Source: Escherichia coli (GTDB lineage: Bacteria > Pseudomonadota > Gammaproteobacteria > Enterobacterales > Enterobacteriaceae). From it: 64,000 bases of DNA. Shown in pieces: positions 4,859-56,073 of the stretch (position 1 is the stretch's first letter; each line of letters begins with the position of its first letter). The stretch is taken from the NCBI RefSeq assembly GCF_051903065.1, contig NZ_CP178438.1; one strand, written 5' to 3'. The notes below the pieces were generated by a model. The model ran no database searches. It was not told where the DNA came from and worked only from the letters and a program-made list of their open reading frames with translations. The position numbers were made by a program, and so were the translations under genes.

Positions 4859-4871
4859 TAACGCTACCGCC
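4859..4871 (-). promoter_or_regulatory. ops element (RfaH-dependent antitermination site) within JUMPstart upstream of the O-antigen operon
   Basis: Plus strand reads acgctaccgcc, the reverse complement of GGCGGTAGCGT, followed by cctggcttt-agctacc JUMPstart-like sequence; lies in the 5-prime leader of the minus-strand operon. Confidence 0.7.
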
Positions 4872-5156
4872 CCTGGCTTTACAGCTACCAGAGCACTGCA
4901 TGCATGTCTACGATGTGACGAGCGTTACCCACTCGCGCTTAACTCGAAAAATTCAAACGCTAATTGTCTTACCAATCCGCTCTGGAAACAAGGAAAATCC
5001 TGGAAAACTTTGACTAAAATCCTATTGCTAACTCGTTGTTATTCTGATTGTTTATATAAAACAACGGCAGGAATATTCGCAACAAATTACTTTCGCCACG
5101 AATCCTCACTGCCGTTATAATTTTCTTATCAACCGTTACATCCGGTCAGATTTTCA

Positions 5157-11409: not shown

Positions 11410-11600
11410 GCCTGATGCGACGCTGGCGCGTCTTATCAGGCCTACAAGACCCGAGCACAGAACCGTAGGCCGGATAAGGCGTTCACGCCGCATCCGGCAT
11501 TCAGTGCCTGATGCGACGCTGACGCGTCTTATCAGGCCTACAGGTCCCGAGCACAGAACCGTAGGATGGATAAGGCGTTTTACGCTGCACCCGGCAACCG
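11410..11600. repeat. REP/BIME cluster (at least two REP units)
   Basis: Two copies of gcctgatgcgacgct..cgcgtcttatcaggcctac plus ggataaggcgtt-acgccgcatccgg units between wcaK and wzxC. Confidence 0.85.
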
Positions 11601-15923: not shown

Positions 15924-16012
15924 GTCGTTACCCTTTTTCAGGCAATAGTTGGCCCTGACCGAAGCGGCCAATTTTGTTTTTGTCGTTATTTACACCGCGG
16001 TTTCGCATTCAT

Positions 16013-30454: not shown

Positions 30455-30466
30455 CACGCTACCGCC
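30455..30466 (-). promoter_or_regulatory. ops element in the JUMPstart of the colanic-acid operon leader
   Basis: Plus strand cacgctaccgcc is the reverse complement of GGCGGTAGCGTG, followed by cctggctttttagctacc JUMPstart-like sequence, about 180 bp upstream of wza. Confidence 0.75.
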
Positions 30467-30678
30467 CCTGGCTTTTTAGCTACCAATACACTGATTTAGC
30501 TTAATTTTTAAAACCCTCTCAACATACAGTCGTTGATGAGAAAGGGTTATTGCGGAAATTAACTTCCGAATATAAGGTGACATTATGGTAATTGAATATT
30601 GGCTCTCCAATAATGCAGGAGGAAGTGTTACAGCTAACGGAATAGCAGGCAAGGTAACAATTCGGCAATTGGCTATTT

Positions 30679-46989: not shown

Positions 46990-47164
46990 AAGAAATCATT
47001 TCTTAGAGAATTATTGAGGTCCGGTATCATACCGACTGCAATAATGAAATAAGAGCAAACGAAGAAACTTTCAGAATTAGTCCCGGCGGCGCAGAAAATT
47101 TTGCTATTCGCCTCGCAAGAACGGAGAGCCGTCGATTGACACTAAGGGCGGAGTGACATAATTT

Positions 47165-47315
47165 CAGGAGTGAGGGTTAGGGAAAGGTTTCCCCCTCCCC
47201 CTGGTGTTCTTAGTAAGCCTGGAAGCTAATCACTAAGAGTATCACCAGTATGATGACGTGCTTCATCATAACCCTTTCCTTATTTAAGGCCCCTTCCTCG
47301 GGAGGGGCTTTCCCG
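47165..47315 (+). ncRNA. sibA: SibA antisense sRNA (antitoxin to ibsA); ends approximate
   Basis: ttgaca / cataat promoter-like elements around 47139-47163; antisense to ibsA; GC hairpin ccccttcctcgggaggggc followed by a T-rich run. Confidence 0.55.
47210..47269 (-). CDS. ibsA: Type I toxin IbsA (19 aa hydrophobic peptide)
   Basis: Minus-strand translation gives MMKHVIILVILLVISFQAY with an AAGGG Shine-Dalgarno-like sequence upstream. Confidence 0.8.
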   Translation of the reverse strand: MMKHVIILVILLVISFQAY

Positions 47316-47499
47316 TTTCAGCATCCCGCTGAAATCGTCGGCTTACCTCCTTTCGCCATGCATGCAGTCTATCGCTGACTTGCGGATAAAATAGTTTCCA
47401 GTGTGATTATTGCGTAACGTCTCGCAAAGAATATTTGCTGGCAGGATCGCAGACTGCAAAGCCTGCAGATTGACAATCTGACCGTGAAGGCATACTTTC

Positions 47500-47620
47500 A
47501 GGAGTGAGGGTTGAGCGGGGTTTCCCCCGCCCTGGTAGTCTTAGTAAGCTGGCCAGCTAATGACTAAGAGCACCACGATGATGAGTAGCTTCATCATGAC
47601 CCTTTTCTTATTAAAGGATG
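47500..47620 (+). ncRNA. sibB: SibB antisense sRNA, apparently lacking its native 3-prime hairpin
   Basis: ttgaca / catact promoter-like elements at about 47471-47497; homology with the sibA copy stops near 47618. Confidence 0.45.
47541..47597 (-). CDS. ibsB: Type I toxin IbsB-like (18 aa hydrophobic peptide)
   Basis: Minus-strand translation gives MMKLLIIVVLLVISWPAY; paralogous to ibsA. Confidence 0.75.
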   Translation of the reverse strand: MMKLLIIVVLLVISWPAY

Positions 47621-47763
47621 ACAAAATAATACAAATCACTTAAAAATCATCGCATTACACGAATTTGCGGTTAAATAATAGACTACAAAGTGCGACAAAA
47701 CGCAACATATGCAGTCACTATGAATCAACTACTTAGATAGTACTAGTGACCTGTAACAGAGCA

Positions 47764-47805
47764 TTAGCGCAAGGTGATTTTTTGTCCTCTTGCGCTAATT
47801 TTTTG
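47764..47805 (+). terminator. Rho-independent terminator-like hairpin
   Basis: Perfect 10-bp stem ttagcgcaag / cttgcgctaa with a 15-nt loop, followed by tttttt. Confidence 0.35.
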
Positions 47806-47961
47806 TCATCAAACATGTCGTTCTCCAGAGAAGCATAAAGCCTTGCAATCAAGTGCAAAGCTTTGTGTACCAGAGTTTTTCCTCATCAACTACCACAAGT
47901 ATCGATCGATTGAGACTTGGATGATAGACTTCATGCCTTTCAGAACTCATTGATTACATAA

Positions 47962-48324
47962 ATGTTAAAGCTATTTGCAAAGTACACCTCGATTGGTGTG
48001 CTGAACACACTTATACACTGGGTGGTTTTTGGTGTATGTATCTATGCCGCGCATACCAATCAGGCTCTGGCAAACTTCTCAGGTTTCGTTGTGGCTGTGA
48101 GCTTTAGCTTCTTCGCGAATGCAAAATTCACATTCAAAGCATCGACTACAACGATGCGCTACATGTTATATGTCGGGTTCATGGGAACACTGAGTGCTAC
48201 TGTTGGATGGGCTGCTGATAAGTGCTCGCTTCCTCCAATTATCACTCTTATCACCTTCTCCGCCATCAGCCTGGTGTGCGGTTTCGTCTATTCAAAGTTC
48301 ATTGTCTTTAGGGATGCGAAATGA
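47962..48324 (+). CDS. gtrA: Bactoprenol-linked glucose translocase GtrA
   Basis: 120-aa small 4-TM protein of the GtrA family; start codon of the next gene overlaps its stop. Confidence 0.85.
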
Positions 48325-49241
48325 AAATATCTCTGATTGTTCCTGTCTTCAATGAAGAAGATGCGATACCAATTTTCTATAAAACGGTACGTGAATTCGA
48401 AGAGTTGAAGCCTTATGACGTCGAAATTGTATTCATAAATGACGGAAGCAAAGACGCCACGGAATCAATTATTAACGTTCTGGCTGTTTCAGATCCGCTA
48501 GTTGTTCCGCTGTCATTTACACGAAACTTTGGTAAAGAACCAGCATTGTTTGCAGGGTTAGACCATGCAACGGGCGATGCTGTTATTCCTATTGATGTTG
48601 ACCTGCAAGACCCGATTGAGGTTATTCCTCATCTGATTGAAAAGTGGCAGGCAGGTGCCGATATGGTGCTGGCAAAACGTTCAGATCGTTCAACTGATGG
48701 AAGATTAAAACGGAAAACCGCTGAGTGGTTCTATAAGCTTCACAATAAAATAAGCAATCCAAAGATTGAAGAGAATGTCGGCGATTTCCGCCTGATGTCT
48801 CGAGAGGTGGTAGAAAATATCAAACTACTGCCAGAGCGTAACCTGTTTATGAAAGGCGTTTTATCTTGGGTTGGCGGTAAGACGGATGTTGTTGAATACA
48901 TCCGTGCTGAACGCGTTGCCGGAAGCACAAAATTCAATGGCTGGAAGCTATGGAACCTGGCGCTTGAGGGAATTACAAGTTTCTCGACCTTCCCCTTACG
49001 CGTGTGGACTTACATCGGCCTACTTGTTGCGGGACTCTCGTTCCTTTACGGGGTGTGGATGATTTTCGACACATTGGTGTTCGGTAATGCTGTCCGCGGA
49101 TATCCTTCTATTCTTGTATCTATTCTCTTTTTAGGTGGCATTCAGTTAATTGGTATTGGGGTGCTGGGAGAATACATCGGCAGAATTTACGTAGAAGTTA
49201 AAAATCGTCCTAGATATGTACTTAAAAAAATAAAAGGTTAG
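48321..49241 (+). CDS. gtrB: Bactoprenol glucosyltransferase GtrB (GT2)
   Basis: 306-aa ORF with GT2 N-terminus ([11 protein letters not shown]...FINDGSKD) and two C-terminal TM segments. Confidence 0.9.
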
Positions 49242-49246
49242 AGAAT

Positions 49247-50623
49247 ATGCGCATTTCAAAAAATGAAAAATACCTTTCATTGATTATGATAGCATTTTAC
49301 TTGCCATTTTTATTATCTGATTTACCTTTTAGGGACGATCTAAGCAGGACTTATTGGGGTTTTGTTGGGTTGTCTCAATTAGGTAGACCATTGGCAGACA
49401 TTGTTTATAGTTTGGTTGGATTTGGCTATGAGGGTGTTAACCTCAGCCCTATGCCTAAAATTATAGCGCTATTAATAATATTATCGTCTGCGATATTTTC
49501 ATACAGAACGCTATTCAACTCAATAGGAGCAACCGGGTTACTCTCTTTATCTATTTTCTTTGCAAATCCATTTATTATTCAAAATTTTGCATATCAGTAC
49601 GACTGTTTTCCAATGGCTTTATCTATTTTATTGGCGACATTATCTGTATTATATAGACCAAGATCAAGCTATTTTTATTTTCTTAGCGCATCATTTTTAT
49701 TAACTAGCGCAATATCACTTTATCAAGCATCTATATTTATTGCGGCATCTTTATATTTATGTAAGATCACTATTTATTTCGTTAACGATAGAAATCGCAG
49801 AGATGTTTTTATAGAATGCATGCTTACTCTTTTGTCTTCTTTTTTCTCTATTGCATGTTACATGGTGATTTTACTTTTTGTAGAAAATGGCGTGTCAAAA
49901 CGAGCTAGCATTACAGGGCCAAGTGGCGTTATTAGCAATATCGAGTTCCTTTTGGATAGGTTAAATAGCCTTTACCACTCGGTTTATATTTTTTTTATTA
50001 TTTTGTCATTAGTATTAATATTCTCTCTCTTGAGGATTTTTATCCTAAAAAGATATATCAATTTATGCGTGATATTACTAATACTTGTTGCGCTGCTAGT
50101 CTCTTCCCTACTCCCATCTGTCATCCTTAAGGAAGGGTTCGCCGGACCAAGAGTTTTAATGTCTATTTGTTCGGTATTTATATTTATATCTATCATTGCA
50201 ACCGGAAAAGAAAAATACGTATACGCCATGGTGTTATCTGTTTTAATGATGCATTCCATGTCTATTTCATACGCATTTTCAGGTGACATTAAGGCACAAT
50301 ACGATAGATACTCGATGATATCATCTCTTGTTTATAAAGATATTGATAATTACGTGTCGTCAAATACAGCAAAAATATACATTTCTTGCAAATCAACCCC
50401 ATCACAAAGAGAGTACGTTTTCTATAAATTCAACAATCACATAGCATGGCTCAACCCAGAAGAGGCTTGGGCTATCAGGTTTTTCATAAGAAATAATGGC
50501 GAGAGCAGGGTGGTGCACTCATGGGATGAATGCTTTGATATAAATGGAGGTAAGATCGTTAAAGAAAATGCATTTTATAAAATGGTTGAAAATAAAAATT
50601 CTTACTATTTCATAATGAAATAA
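49247..50623 (+). CDS. Serotype-specific O-antigen glucosyltransferase (GtrC-type polytopic membrane protein)
   Basis: 458-aa very AT-rich, highly hydrophobic ORF immediately after gtrAB; family call is by context and composition. Confidence 0.6.
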   Translation: MRISKNEKYLSLIMIAFYLPFLLSDLPFRDDLSRTYWGFVGLSQLGRPLADIVYSLVGFGYEGVNLSPMPKIIALLIILSSAIFSYRTLFNSIGATGLLSLSIFFANPFIIQNFAYQYDCFPMALSILLATLSVLYRPRSSYFYFLSASFLLTSAISLYQASIFIAASLYLCKITIYFVNDRNRRDVFIECMLTLLSSFFSIACYMVILLFVENGVSKRASITGPSGVISNIEFLLDRLNSLYHSVYIFFIILSLVLIFSLLRIFILKRYINLCVILLILVALLVSSLLPSVILKEGFAGPRVLMSICSVFIFISIIATGKEKYVYAMVLSVLMMHSMSISYAFSGDIKAQYDRYSMISSLVYKDIDNYVSSNTAKIYISCKSTPSQREYVFYKFNNHIAWLNPEEAWAIRFFIRNNGESRVVHSWDECFDINGGKIVKENAFYKMVENKNSYYFIMK

Positions 50624-50629
50624 ATATAG

Positions 50630-50663
50630 GCGGGGGGGGGGGTAACAATCCCCCGTCTTTTTT
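50630..50663 (+). terminator. Rho-independent terminator after the gtr operon
   Basis: G-run (11 G) pairing with ccccc across a taacaat loop, followed by tctttttt, 7 bp after the gtrC stop. Confidence 0.5.
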
Positions 50664-50849
50664 GCTACGGCAAGTGATTAATCGCAACAATTGATTATTA
50701 TTTATAACAAATGCGTCATCTACCGCTATTCGGGTGACATTTTCATTCCTTATCTAAAATACAATTAAATAATTAACAAATAATTAAACGAATTGCATGA
50801 AAAATACATTACCGAAAAGTTAGAATAGTGTGCGATTGAAAGTTAATAA

Positions 50850-53381
50850 CTATATAACGGATAGCGTTCTTATGTCATTGCTAGCTGGTGATGCCATAAC
50901 TATCTGTGTTACGTTAGCGCCAGACACCGTATACGTCAGAATTACGTTACCAACGGCTCCTATATTAAAGTTTTGTTTAGCTCCTGAGGTACCTATAGCT
51001 CTGGCATTCGTTAAAGTATACGTGCTTCCCGCAGTGAATCCTGTAGCAATTACAAATTGTTGACCAACTTTAAAAGGAACTGTCATTGTTGCGGATGTTG
51101 ACTCGACAGTAGCAAACGGCAGGCCAGGCTGTTTAACCCCCGTCACATCCCAGAACTCACAGTTACGCACCAATGCTCGACCAATTAAATCGCGAGTTAC
51201 AGGGAATGTTGTCTGGTCCTGTGATAAGAATGCTCCAACAATTTGCACGTTATCGAGCGTAATATCGTGTACTGTGGCCCCATCTATAGGACTTAACGTT
51301 GGTGATGCACTCCATAATTTACCACCCTTCATTTTGATACTTACAGGCCCGTTAGGGTCTGTCCCTCTAAAAGCGCGAATACTCTCAAATTTGCAATCTG
51401 TAAATTCATAGCTGCCGCGTTGGTTAGTTTCGAACAATGTATACGCCTCACCTGACACTCCGTGTCTTACATCACTGGCAACAACGCGCGGATTATGGCG
51501 GAATGATGCAGACGTGACAGAGAAAAATGGCGCGCAGACATCGTTAATAAGAATGTCTGTTGTATAACGCCCTGTAACAGCGCTCTCAGAGTCACTCATA
51601 TCCGAATATAGCGCTTTGAAGCGGGAGAAGTCTATGTTTAGACCTATTCCTGCACTTTTTGGTAATTGTCCAAAATCAAGCCCGTCAATAACAATTTTCT
51701 TAGGGAAATAAAGGGTGTTATCTCGAGCTACAGTTATTAATGTACCCGGATAAGTCAAGACGAAACCTGGATACATTTTAACATCTTTCAAGGTAACATT
51801 ATTGAATAACGTGGGGCTTATAGGCGACCCGCTACTAGGCCCTTGCCCAGCAGTAACAGCTGCGTTTATGATACCATTTCCGGGTGCGCCGCTGCGCAGG
51901 CCAGTTAACTTAATATTCTCCATGTATAAATCACCATCGAAGCCCCCCCCCAGCGTCAGAGCGAGTCGAAATAATATTACCAGGCTTATATGGTGAAGCA
52001 TTAAATATTGAATTGGTTACATACAAATCCCCGATACCAGAAGCGACGACACCATAAGTCCCAATATTACAGTCATTTATCTTTAAGTAGTTTTGGAAAG
52101 GTCTGTGGAAATCAATTCGACTAAGATCGCATCTTTCAAACCTTATATTGGCGCAATTATTGCTGCCTGTTGCCCCCCAGCCTTTACCATTTGCCGTTGC
52201 GTTTTTGATAGTGACATCCATAGAGTTAGATAGGGTTAAGGCGTATGCGTAGCTATCAACACCATCTATTAAGGCGTTTGCTATGGCTGGCGTGTATAAA
52301 CCATCAACTGTAACATCATAGCTTTCGTTAATTTCTATCCTGATATCATTAAAGTTTTGCGTTATCGGTCTGTTAATAAATGTCGTATTAACCAAGCGAA
52401 CTCGTGATGCTTGATTAATATAAATAATTCGATAATTCTTTGTAAGACTTTCGTCTATAGTCAATCCCTTAAGGTCTGCACATCTTTGCGTATTTTAAGT
52501 GCTTTAATTGATGTTGCGTTAGTTCCTAGGGCGTACTTAAGCGGGTTTTCAATGTATCCACGGTTATATACCCTGTTGAAATCTACGCGAGTTTGATTAA
52601 CGCCATCGAAAATAAACATAGGTTGAGATGTCGATAACTGAATGAAGCAACCGTCAAGGTCGGTATTAGAAGCCAAACCATCAAGATAGTTGCTACCTAT
52701 GTCGCGAGAGCCACTGGTGGACGTATTAACTCCATTAACTGGAGCCGAACCAGAACCGTATGTAACAGGGGCGACAGGCTGGCTAATAACAATTTGCCCT
52801 TTCCATGTAGCCGATGGTTTAAGCACACACCCGGTTAAATCCACATTTAAACTTTTAATATCAAGATAAGTATCACCATCTAGTAGAAAAGTTCCGTCAG
52901 ATTGCCTAACGTCTAAATTATTTGAATAAGCATAGTTCAGTGCCTTAGCTATGGCGGGAGCGTCATTTGTTACTCCATCACCAATAGCGCCAAACTCCTT
53001 CAACGTTACCCAGTATTTTACTTTCTCCAAGCTCTTTTGATATTGATCTGGGTCGTACTTCAGCACATTAGGAAAATAGAACTGCTGCGCACCATATGCA
53101 TCATAAACAGCCATAGAGTGGCCTTGCACAGTTACGAACTTGGCAATCTGTCCGTTATATACCGGATATCCAGCAGCGTTAATGATGATTGGTTGTGAAA
53201 CAGGAACGTGAGAACCATCCTCATTCTCCACATAAATCTGAATCTGGTTTTCAGGATTTACCGGGTCAGTGTCAATTTTTCCTATATAAATTTTGCCATT
53301 GGCAACCGCTTTAAAAGAACGTGCCATAGTGAAGAGTTGCGAAGGCATGCTTACCACAACATTTGCGGTGATATCTGTCAT
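50850..53381 (-). pseudogene. P22-like phage tailspike gene disrupted by at least two frameshifts
   Basis: Three consecutive minus-strand ORFs (52461-53381, 51931-52464, 50850-52001). The first begins [43 protein letters not shown], recognised from memory as the P22 gp9 head-binding domain; the others are beta-helix-like. One frame junction sits on a 9-nt homopolymer. Confidence 0.75.
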
Positions 53382-53505
53382 TTAATTTGCTCCAGATTCA
53401 AGGAATCGCCGCAGCATGGCTACGGTGAATTTTGTGCATAAAAAACCCAGCCGAAGCTGGGTCGTTGCGTTGGTTATCTGTAAGTAGTTATGTGCTTAGG
53501 TAATT

Positions 53506-54706
53506 TGTATTAGCTCAGACCTGATCTGACAGTTACCGGTTATTTATACAGGTATCTGTCAGATTACATCCGGCTTAAATTTTTCTCGGCCCAGATGCGC
53601 TTTCCATCAAGTAACGTTTCCATTGGCGTCCGCCCATTGCGCATTTTTCCCTGATGGGTTCGTTCATTATTATAGTGAGCCAGCCACTCATCAAGATCCG
53701 ATTGCAATGTATCGAGAGCTCCATACAACTTTTTACGGAACGTCACCTGATAAAATTCGTTCAGTATCGTCTTATGGAACCGCTCGCAGATGCCATTTGT
53801 CTGCGGTGACATCGCTTTAGTTTTCGTGTGGTCTATATCATTTATTGCCAGATATAGCTGGTAGTCATGCTGTTCCACCTTACCGCAGTACTCTGTTCCT
53901 CTGTCGGTCAGTATTCTCAGCATTGGCAGGTTTTGCGATTCGTAAAATGGCAACACACGATCATTCAGCAGGTCAGCAGCCGTGATCGGTGTTTTGGTTA
54001 CATACAGTTTACAGTGTGCGACCTTCGAGTAGGTGTCAACGAACGTTTGCTGATAAATGCGTCCGACTCCTTTCAGATTACCCACGTAGAACGTATCCTG
54101 AGAGCCCAGATAACCGGGATGTGCGGTTTCGATTTCACCACACGCTTCGTCATCGCTGGCTTTACGCTCCAGAACGACTATCTGTGCTTCTGTCAGCTCG
54201 ATACCGTCACGGGCTACTTTTTCCTCCAGTGCTTTCAGCCGCTTTTTGAAGTTCTCAAGGTTATGCCGCAGCCAGACAGAACGTACACCCCTTCCTGAGA
54301 TGAAGACACCTTGCTTACGTAGCTCATTGCTGGTCCGGTGCTGGCCATGCGCAGGGTACGCGATGGCATAATCAACAACGGCCCGCTCAGTTGCATCATC
54401 GGTACGATTTTTTAGATTGGGCGTTCGTCGAGTGCGGTTAATCAGTGCATCCACCCCACCTTCATCAGCCAGTTCGCGATAACGGTAAAACGTATCACGC
54501 GAGACGCCCATGATTTTGCAGGCCTTCGAAACATTGCGGAGTTCTTCAGCCAGATTGAGCAAACCGGCTTTGTGTTTGATGACGGGATTGTTAGTATGAA
54601 GCATGAGAGTTACCTCGTGTTTTGTATAAGGATTCGACACCCATATCAAAACCGGTAACTCTCAACCTTTCAAGGCTCAGTGTCAGATCAAGTCGCGACT
54701 AATACA
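53506..54706 (-). mobile_element. IS481-like insertion sequence (about 1.2 kb) with imperfect terminal inverted repeats
   Basis: Ends tgtattagctcagacctgatctgacagttaccggtt (53506-53541) and aaccggtaact...gtcagatcaagtcgcgactaataca (54650-54706) are inverted repeats with a 20-bp insertion in the right copy; encloses one transposase gene. Confidence 0.6.
53564..54604 (-). CDS. DDE transposase (integrase-core/rve domain with N-terminal HTH), IS481-family-like
   Basis: Track ORF is 361 aa from a TTG; likely ATG start at 54604 (MLHTNNPVIKHK..., 346 aa); HTH-like N-terminus and integrase-core-like central region. Confidence 0.75.
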   Translation of the reverse strand: MLHTNNPVIKHKAGLLNLAEELRNVSKACKIMGVSRDTFYRYRELADEGGVDALINRTRRTPNLKNRTDDATERAVVDYAIAYPAHGQHRTSNELRKQGVFISGRGVRSVWLRHNLENFKKRLKALEEKVARDGIELTEAQIVVLERKASDDEACGEIETAHPGYLGSQDTFYVGNLKGVGRIYQQTFVDTYSKVAHCKLYVTKTPITAADLLNDRVLPFYESQNLPMLRILTDRGTEYCGKVEQHDYQLYLAINDIDHTKTKAMSPQTNGICERFHKTILNEFYQVTFRKKLYGALDTLQSDLDEWLAHYNNERTHQGKMRNGRTPMETLLDGKRIWAEKNLSRM

Positions 54707-54754
54707 TGTACCCGTCATTCAGACGATTCCCGACAGTGTTTCATAATTCCTCCA

Positions 54755-54772
54755 TTTTTCTCCCTTATTGGC
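54755..54772 (+). promoter_or_regulatory. BaeR-binding box of the mdtA promoter
   Basis: tttttctcccttattggc matches the published BaeR box consensus TTTTTCTCCATDATTGGC at 16 of 18 positions, about 55 bp upstream of the mdtA start. Confidence 0.5.
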
Positions 54773-54825
54773 TGGCTACACTAGTATCATTCCGCGAAAC
54801 GTTTCAGGAAGAGAAACTCTTAACG

Positions 54826-56073
54826 ATGAAAGGCAGTTATAAATCCCGTTGGGTAATCGTAATCGTGGTGGTTATCGCCGCCATCGCCGCATTCTGGTTC
54901 TGGCAAGGCCGCAATGACTCCCAGAGTGCAGCCCCAGGGGCGACGAAACAAGCGCAGCAATCGCCAGCGGGTGGTCGCCGTGGTATGCGTTCCGGCCCAT
55001 TAGCCCCGGTTCAGGCGGCGACCGCCGTAGAACAGGCAGTTCCGCGTTACCTTACCGGGCTTGGCACCATTACCGCTGCTAACACCGTTACGGTGCGCAG
55101 CCGCGTAGATGGTCAGTTGATGGCGTTACATTTCCAGGAAGGCCAGCAGGTCAAAGCAGGCGATTTACTGGCAGAAATTGACCCCAGCCAGTTCAAAGTT
55201 GCATTAGCACAAGCCCAGGGCCAACTGGCAAAAGATAAAGCCACGCTTGCCAACGCCCGCCGTGACCTGGCGCGTTATCAACAACTGGTAAAAACCAATC
55301 TCGTATCTCGTCAGGAACTGGATGCCCAACAGGCGCTGGTCAGTGAAACCGAAGGCACCATTAAGGCTGATGAAGCAAGCGTCGCCAGCGCGCAGCTGCA
55401 ACTCGACTGGAGCCGCATCACCGCACCAGTCGATGGTCGCGTTGGTCTCAAGCAGGTTGATGTTGGTAACCAAATCTCCAGTGGTGATACCACCGGGATT
55501 GTGGTGATCACCCAGACGCATCCTATCGATTTGCTCTTTACCCTGCCGGAAAGCGATATCGCTACCGTCGTGCAGGCGCAGAAATCCGGAAAACCGCTGG
55601 TGGTAGAAGCCTGGGATCGCACCAACTCGAAGAAATTAAGTGAAGGCACGCTGTTAAGCCTCGATAACCAAATCGATGCCACAACCGGTACGATTAAAGT
55701 GAAAGCACGCTTTAATAATCAGGATGATGCGCTGTTTCCCAATCAGTTTGTTAACGCGCGCATGTTAGTCGACACCGAACAAAACGCCGTAGTGATCCCA
55801 ACAGCCGCCCTGCAAATGGGCAATGAAGGCCATTTTGTCTGGGTGCTGAATAGCGAAAACAAGGTCAGCAAACATCTGGTGACGCCGGGCATTCAGGACA
55901 GTCAGAAAGTGGTGATCCGCGCAGGTATTTCTGCGGGCGATCGCGTGGTGACAGACGGCATTGATCGCCTGACCGAAGGGGCGAAAGTGGAAGTGGTGGA
56001 AGCCCAGAGCGCCACCACTCCGGAAGAGAAAGCCACCAGCCGCGAATACGCGAAAAAAGGAGCTCGCTCCTGA
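54826..56073 (+). CDS. mdtA: Multidrug efflux RND membrane-fusion protein MdtA
   Basis: Track ORF is 455 aa and starts at an ATG formed at the IS terminus (54706); conserved start is [15 protein letters not shown]... (415 aa). Confidence 0.92.

Follow-up and report, generated by a model that had tools for sequence, protein, structure and literature searches.

An HK022-type attachment junction as the probable edge of a decayed prophage within the sibB/ibsB toxin-antitoxin pair of Escherichia coli

In the stretch of Escherichia coli DNA analyzed here (64,000 nucleotides of contig NZ_CP178438.1, hereafter the window), recognizable host sequence breaks off inside the overlapping sibB and ibsB genes, which raises the question of what kind of boundary this is and what it would mean for the two partners of this type I toxin-antitoxin pair. 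The gene order near the junction, on the E. coli chromosome, is yegI-pphC-yegL, ibsA/sibA, ibsB/sibB, a 7.1 kb insert and mdtABCD, and the GC content falls from ~0.50 to 0.32-0.45 across 47500-53500. The host side of the junction carries two tandem sib/ibs units with the following features.

47136-47284, plus strand: sibA, matching the Rfam family SIB_RNA (RF00113) at 149.3 bits; the match includes the -35/-10 promoter.
47210-47269, antisense to sibA: ibsA, with the translation MMKHVIILVILLVISFQAY.
47286-47319, plus strand: intact intrinsic terminator of sibA, a GC hairpin followed by UUUCCCGUUUC (-19.3 kcal/mol); this feature is missing from the B copy.
47470-47612, plus strand: sibB promoter and SibB body up to the crossover, matching the full-length RF00113 model at 133.3 bits.
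47541-47597, minus strand: ibsB, an intact ORF of 18 codons (MMKLLIIVVLLVISWPAY), a hydrophobic Ibs reading frame lying antisense within the Sib gene.

The sibB match passes the RF00113 gathering threshold of 56 bits, and its promoter consists of a consensus -35 element at 47470-47475 and a -10 element, TACTTT, at 47493-47498. Promoter spacing and the length of the K-12 SibB RNA, which is 136 nt and ends in ...UUUCC (PMC10168233), place the transcription start near 47506. The window copy has in common with the K-12 ibsB/sibB locus the promoter of sibB, the ibsB ORF and a SibB body that includes the long-range closing helix and the two target-pairing regions; it differs from K-12 in the absence of the SibB intrinsic terminator, of the promoter of ibsB along with ~50 nt of its 5' UTR, and of the 3' part of the repeat unit. 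The SibB body is kept to about +107, and 9-15 nt are all that is left of the native ibsB leader upstream of the ORF. Beyond the closing helix the B copy contains no SibB intrinsic terminator, the interval 47598-47660 folding at only -3.6 kcal/mol; a Sib terminator is present in the A copy of the window and in K-12. The ibs promoter and the ~60-nt leader beyond the Sib 3' end are likewise absent from the B copy, and the conserved segment that holds them is found only at sibA. The sibB of the window is a truncated member of the Sib/Ibs family that lacks two family features, its own terminator and the ibs promoter.

Host homology runs out 15-20 nt before the ibsB start codon on its upstream side, at 47612-47617. 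When 47100-48000 was searched by megablast against 5426 complete E. coli genomes, nearly all of them matched only to 47612-47617 (query 513-518), and the sibA and sibB units of the window are 76% identical from their -35 boxes to 47617, with similarity at noise level beyond. The K-12 sibA and sibB repeat units are ~95% alike for ~130 nt past the point at which the window copies diverge, and the conserved segment downstream of the Sib terminator occurs in the window as a single copy, at sibA. Past the breakpoint K-12 (L001) continues with GGCCCCTTCCTCGGGAGGGGCTTTCCCGTTTC, which the window does not contain; K-12 has there a hairpin, GGCCCCTTCCTCGGGAGGGGC, followed by TTTCCCGTTTC, and the window reads ATGACAAAATAAT... 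at the same place. In all, ~144 bp of K-12 sequence (L001 2015-2158) are missing from the window; they hold the terminator of sibB together with the promoter region of ibsB and most of its 5' UTR. An initial annotation, made from the letters of the window, had placed the end of homology between the A and B copies near 47618, had described the sibB copy as running into other DNA where sibA has its terminator, and had named alignment with K-12 as the check. Each of these points is borne out: K-12 differs downstream of ibsB, and the sibB terminator and the ibsB upstream sequence beyond -15/-20 are gone. We rejected an assembly artifact as the source of the junction, because six independent complete genomes carry an identical 7.5 kb stretch across the region.

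The sequence on both sides of the breakpoint, and that of the neighboring sibA unit, contains elements of a phage attachment site.

47271-47291: unoccupied attB-like core in the sibA copy, ACCCTTT-CCTTATT-TAAGGCC, with the overlap and B site seen at the attL of three other genomes (L007, L010 and L011).
47599-47619: attR-type core, ACCCTTT-TCTTATT-AAAGGAT, with C and C' sites identical to those of the HK022 attP.
47613-47762: phage P arm, of the HK022 attP type; identity to HK022 attP is 92.4% over 47612-47808.
47763-47804, plus strand: homologue of the lambda/HK022 sib/tI hairpin with a T6 run, the predicted new SibB terminator (-24.1 kcal/mol, z = -5.9).

The attR-type core is made up of a B' site, ACCCTTT (47599-47605), an overlap, TCTTATT (47606-47612), and a phage C site, AAAGGAT (47613-47619). 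It therefore has the 7-bp overlap flanked by inverted 7-bp core-type Int sites that define such a junction (PMC7736782), and similarity to HK022 attP starts exactly at the core-type site AAAGGAT. By these defining sequence features the breakpoint is an HK022-type att junction. The overlap of the window is a 1-nt variant of CCTTATT, which is the form found in the K-12 attB, in the attR of L003, L004 and L007 and in the attL of L007, L010 and L011. The variant base is the first of the overlap, a T at 47606 where K-12, CM125671, DCE7, RM14723 and 2018-05-2CC have C; on the ibsB strand it is a G to A change at -9, which converts the best-placed Shine-Dalgarno sequence from AAGGA to AAGAA and could reflect relaxed selection or be a down-mutation of toxin translation.

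Folding revealed no terminator-like structure between 47618 and 47762, and the next hairpin, which the initial annotation had put at 47764-47805, is real, with a stem at 47763-47799 and the T6 run at 47799-47804. A simple terminator scan (loop of at most 8, at least 5 T) misses both this hairpin and the sibA terminator, for which its criteria are too strict. The phage element called sib and the host gene sibB share their name by coincidence only; the homologous element of HK022 is annotated in X51962 as a 'sib transcription processing site'.

The junction of CTTATTAAAGG with ATGACAAAATAAT is present in at least 83 of the 5426 complete E. coli genomes (~1.5%), with the ibsB ORF intact. The cargo beside it differs among genomes and includes a retron Eco8 element, effector prophages (with espJ/nleG and with nleB2/nleC/nleD), a siphovirus-type remnant and another gtrABC element. 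In NZ_CM125671.1 (L003 3684-6247) the retron Eco8 reverse transcriptase and effector endonuclease lie less than 700 bp from the attR junction, so the attB site also carries anti-phage defense cargo. A matching attL is found next to mdtA in three genomes, RM14723 (L007), 2018-05-2CC (L010) and C11 (L011), where the order is int stop codon, P' arm and (C/A)AACTTA-CCTTATT-TAAGGCC, and then CCTTCCTCGGGAGGGG..., which is the displaced sibB terminator and the normal mdtA upstream sequence. Neither int nor attL is present in the window; int is found in the related genomes. From these junctions we infer an attP of CAACTTA-CCTTATT-AAAGGAT and an attB of ACCCTTT-CCTTATT-(A/T)AAGGCC, the K-12 B site being TATGGCC. 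As an attB-like core is also present in sibA, the tandem sib array has at least two sites at which integration could occur.

The array itself is variable. In strain 2018-05-2CC (NZ_AP027877.1, L010 38040-38760) a further complete sib/ibs unit, the third, lies between attL and mdtA, with the phage in a middle copy, so that the tandem array differs in copy number among strains. RM14723 (L007 380-700) and DCE7 (L004) have one hybrid sib unit, a sibA-type promoter joined to a sibB-type body, which presumably arose by recombination between tandem repeats. In DCE7 (NZ_CP090611.1, L006 36160-36290) the displaced sibB terminator at attL has an ISEc13 element (IS4-family) in its loop.

Comparison of these sites with coliphage HK022 (X51962, NC_002166) reveals P and P' arms that are ~89-92% identical, the same C' (CAACTTA) and C (AAAGGAT) sites, the same placement of the sib/tI hairpin and, for the integrases at the sibB site, 97% identity to HK022 Int. 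The HK022 attP, CAACTTA-TTCACCT-AAAGGAT, differs from the inferred sibB-site attP only in the overlap, and an overlap of CCTTATT rather than TTCACCT indicates the sibB/ibsB core as the target and not HK022's own attB. HK022 itself was rejected as the integrant, the overlaps differing at 6/7 positions. The HK022 attB consists of a 7-bp overlap between two 7-bp Int sites, and any overlap is accepted provided that attP and attB match (PMC7736782); a change of overlap alone would thus be sufficient for a new target. Free phages were searched for the predicted attP: the exact 24-mer CAACTTACCTTATTAAAGGATGAC was absent from viral_contigs, and BLAST of the reconstructed attP against 50,697 phage records gave HK022 as the best match (89%), with HK022's own overlap. 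As no sequenced free phage with the predicted attP was found, integration at sibB is deduced from prophage junctions only.

Beyond the P arm, the insert and its right edge contain the following features.

47962-48324, plus strand: gtrA (PF04138).
48321-49241, plus strand: gtrB (PF00535).
49247-50623, plus strand: gene for a gtrC-type glucosyltransferase, GtrII-type (PF14264).
50850-53381, minus strand: P22-type tailspike gene, fragmented, convergent with gtrABC.
52461-53381, minus strand: ORF for the tailspike head-binding domain (PF09008, 1.9e-67).
53506-54706, minus strand: IS481-family element of 1201 bp at the right edge of the remnant, with a DDE transposase (rve domain) and 26-nt terminal inverted repeats.
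54707-54825, plus strand: resumed host sequence, equal to K-12 from L001 2159 onward, just upstream of mdtA (54826-56073).

The gtrABC genes (47962-50623) are O-antigen glucosylation cargo, and the arrangement in which they converge, beside the att site, on a tailspike gene encoding a P22 head-binding domain matches the att-proximal end of P22-like (Lederbergvirus) phages. Phage Gally offers the same combination, a P22-like genome with an HK022-type att module and a tailspike gene adjoining the P arm. In contrast to HK022, the window retains only the P-arm half of the att arrangement, and its cargo is P22-like with gtrABC rather than that of HK022. A complete phage genome (head, replication, immunity, int) is not present in the window, where 7.1 kb separate sibB from mdtA, and among the genomes inspected there was neither an intact gtrABC-phage progenitor nor a complete P22-like prophage at sibB; the nearest is a different, also decayed gtrABC element in 2018-05-2CC (93.7% identity). 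The IS481-family element lacks a target-site duplication, its flanks being ...gtaatt and tgtacc..., which fits a deletion or recombination between two IS copies. Strains with this remnant include 23CRST027 and ECNB21-M121.

Several smaller observations concern the remnant and its surroundings. At 51943-51951 the tailspike-like reading frame is broken by a C9 tract, which is C8 in strain ECNB21-M121, into ORFs at 50850-52001 and 51931-52464, and a G11 tract at 50632-50642 lies in a hairpin between gtrC and the tailspike gene; both tracts could be sequencing errors or slippage-prone sites. The ORF finder starts mdtA at 54706, with an ATG that spans the right IS end, and the annotated start is at 54826, the extension being a junction artifact. 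Elsewhere in the window, Rfam matches comprise two JUMPstart elements (4860-4898; 30455-30493, minus strand), an algC motif (15928-15977, minus strand) and a REP-derived naRNA4 (11468-11538), all of which fit the upstream colanic acid and O-antigen gene clusters.

Taken together, these results make it very probable that the breakpoint is the attR (POB') end of a decayed lambdoid prophage at sibB/ibsB, whose integration split terminator and promoter from the pair and would tip it toward the antitoxin. In this history, drawn for the window's remnant from the junctions of other genomes, lambda/HK022-type recombination would have placed the phage into a 21-bp core within the overlapping genes, the overlap CCTTATT separating the SibB body from the terminator stem and occupying the positions 9-15 nt upstream of the ibsB start. 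An overlap at this position means that integration splits the locus: the ibsB ORF and the sibB promoter with the SibB body would stay on the attR side, and the SibB terminator would move to the attL side, beside int, together with the promoter of ibsB and most of its 5' UTR. The phage would have been P22-like, with gtrABC and a tailspike gene adjoining the P arm, and a later IS481-family-associated deletion is proposed to have taken out the remaining prophage DNA along with attL and the ~144 bp of host sequence that held the displaced terminator and promoter.

Were the edge instead an arbitrary one, produced by illegitimate recombination, transposition or deletion, its position in sibB/ibsB would be a coincidence. 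The right edge of the island is of just this kind, with an IS481-family element that lacks a target duplication beside a 144-bp host deletion, and the integrase is absent from the window. The left junction, however, is the same base for base in at least 83 genomes with unrelated cargo and starts exactly at the C core site of an HK022-type attP, and three genomes have a reciprocal attL whose 7-bp overlap is the same and which lies beside an HK022-like int; we therefore regard an arbitrary left edge as hardly credible. The initial annotation had thus recognized a genuine breakpoint and a genuine loss of host DNA. The boundary is not an arbitrary island edge but a site-specific att junction reused by HK022-type phages, and the loss would comprise two events that had been missed, an integration that moved the terminator and promoter away and a later IS-associated deletion that removed both.

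The attR junction has different predicted consequences for the two partners. The +159 position of the ibsC mRNA is the complement of SibC +1, as given by primer sequences, and SibC is 141 nt long, which places the ibs start 18 nt past the 3' end of Sib and the promoter still further away (PMC2943612). The ibsB sequence that matches this start, TCAGCGGGACGCTG..., is part of the DNA that the window lacks; going by homology, ibsB transcription would start within the missing 144 bp, where its promoter would lie as well, and the replacement of the ibsB promoter proposed in the initial annotation fits this mapping. Without its native promoter ibsB would be silent, or weakly transcribed at most from chance AT-rich promoter-like sites, and any such transcript would still be fully complementary to SibB. 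A strict promoter scan gave no minus-strand site pointing at ibsB. A relaxed scan of the minus strand of the P arm gives weak promoter-like sites, among them TTAACC-17-(TG)GATGAT (47674-47646) and ATGCGA-18-TATTAT (47655-47626), which score 8/12, no worse than the weak native ibs promoter, and some low-level ibsB transcription may occur.

For SibB, the HK022 int gene is on the plus strand in the orientation of the window, so SibB transcription enters the P arm in the int-sense direction. In lambda-type phages tI works as a terminator in this direction. The prediction of a longer SibB is strengthened, since the next hairpin is a sib/tI homologue facing int-sense transcription. The RNA would read through the core and P arm and end at the tI/sib hairpin, extending from ~47506 to ~47804, or ~300 nt compared with 136 nt in K-12. 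With the sib retroregulation/tI element of lambda and HK022 the window shares a homologous hairpin and T-run ~190 nt from the core, on the P-arm side and in int-sense reading; the upstream unit is int in those phages, whereas it is a host small-RNA gene in the window. As there is no N antitermination here, plain termination would be expected and not RNase III processing. When the 313-nt chimera is folded, the structure of the Sib body is predicted to be preserved, and the longer SibB should still hold both ibsB-pairing regions. The binding of ProQ to SibB may change with the loss of the native terminator, since SibB ends in a terminator hairpin, a short U tail and then CC, and ProQ recognizes it via this terminator (PMC10168233). 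Truncated SibC RNAs joined to a foreign terminator remain able to repress ibsC (PMC2943612). As judged from the arrangement of these elements, the pair is probably tipped toward the antitoxin and inert. The initial annotation had suggested that the junction could unbalance the pair, which in a harmful sense is not supported, the toxin gene being without its promoter and SibB keeping its promoter and both target-recognition regions; with the toxin side disabled and the antitoxin largely preserved, the predicted outcome is the opposite of a dangerous imbalance.

A locus that leans toward the toxin would need ibsB to be expressed from a chance P-arm promoter, with a leader of ~20-50 nt, and SibB to become scarcer or less stable without its ProQ determinant. 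The weak promoter-like hexamers do point at ibsB, the ProQ determinant of SibB is its terminator hairpin (PMC10168233), and the C to T change at 47606 (ibsB -9, AAGGA) could be a compensatory down-mutation of toxin translation. We nevertheless think this quite improbable, because the strict promoter scan gives no minus-strand site, the sibB promoter is intact with its consensus -35, SibC derivatives with a foreign terminator repress ibsC, and the persistence of the arrangement in at least 83 genomes with an intact ibsB ORF speaks against toxicity; moreover, tI has a 6-U tail and an A-rich 5' flank, which are reported to favor ProQ binding (PMC10168233). It is also unlikely that SibB falls short of tI and acquires mixed ends, slightly longer than normal, by Rho-dependent termination or decay in the P arm. 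In favor of this, the 145-nt interval carries no translated sequence and is slightly richer in C than in G (28 vs 21), but the region is A-rich rather than C-rich, and the int transcripts of lambda and HK022 are generally known to cross the same untranslated attP sequence and to stop at tI (PI/tI). An inert pair with a SibB extended to tI remains our preferred reading.

Comparable sites are known at other small-RNA genes. Balbontin and co-workers are said to have described, in 2008, a hot spot for insertions at ryeA/ryeB (SdsR), a bidirectional small-RNA locus of Salmonella. Prophages are known to integrate at genes of this kind, ryeB and ryeE being among the examples given by Bobay et al. 2013 (PMC3603311). 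As at ryeA/ryeB, phage-derived elements repeatedly enter an overlapping sense/antisense RNA locus, inside it or at its 3' end; locus and integrase type are different at sibB/ibsB, which is a toxin-antitoxin pair whose ORF is parted from its promoter. Integration at the 3' ends of tRNA and tmRNA genes (P22 at thrW, CPS-53 at argW) similarly affects the 3' portion of a structured RNA gene, adjoining its terminator. Those phages, however, carry a copy of the 3' end and restore the gene, whereas the sibB-site phage restores nothing: its attP and attB share only 7 bp and 4-5 bp of the adjoining core site (AAGG or AAAGG), and SibB gets a foreign terminator ~190 nt further on. The searchable literature yielded no published description of sibB/ibsB as an attB, and supplementary hotspot tables may list the site.

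A far-reaching interpretation would make the sibB/ibsB core a genuine, undescribed attB of naturally retargeted HK022-type integrases, with integration as a reversible rewiring of both partners, in which IbsB is switched off as its ORF is uncoupled from the promoter, SibB gains tI, int gains the SibB terminator, and the orphaned ibsB promoter at attL fires antisense into the 3' end of int. This full scheme is doubtful; if true, the antisense firing could dampen Int expression and stabilize lysogeny. At its plainest, the finding is a case of phage integration at the gene for a small RNA, neat but not very unusual, and it leaves the understanding of small RNAs, toxin-antitoxin systems and integrases unchanged. 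For annotation, sibB in strains with this junction should not be assumed to be the 136-nt RNA of K-12, and ibsB there is probably a promoterless relic. The site also provides a natural HK022-type attP whose specificity appears to have been changed via the 7-bp overlap alone, a property so far exploited mainly in engineered systems. For E. coli, these data point to a recurrent prophage site inside a type I toxin-antitoxin pair, one that carries O-antigen-modifying genes, type III effector genes and a retron.
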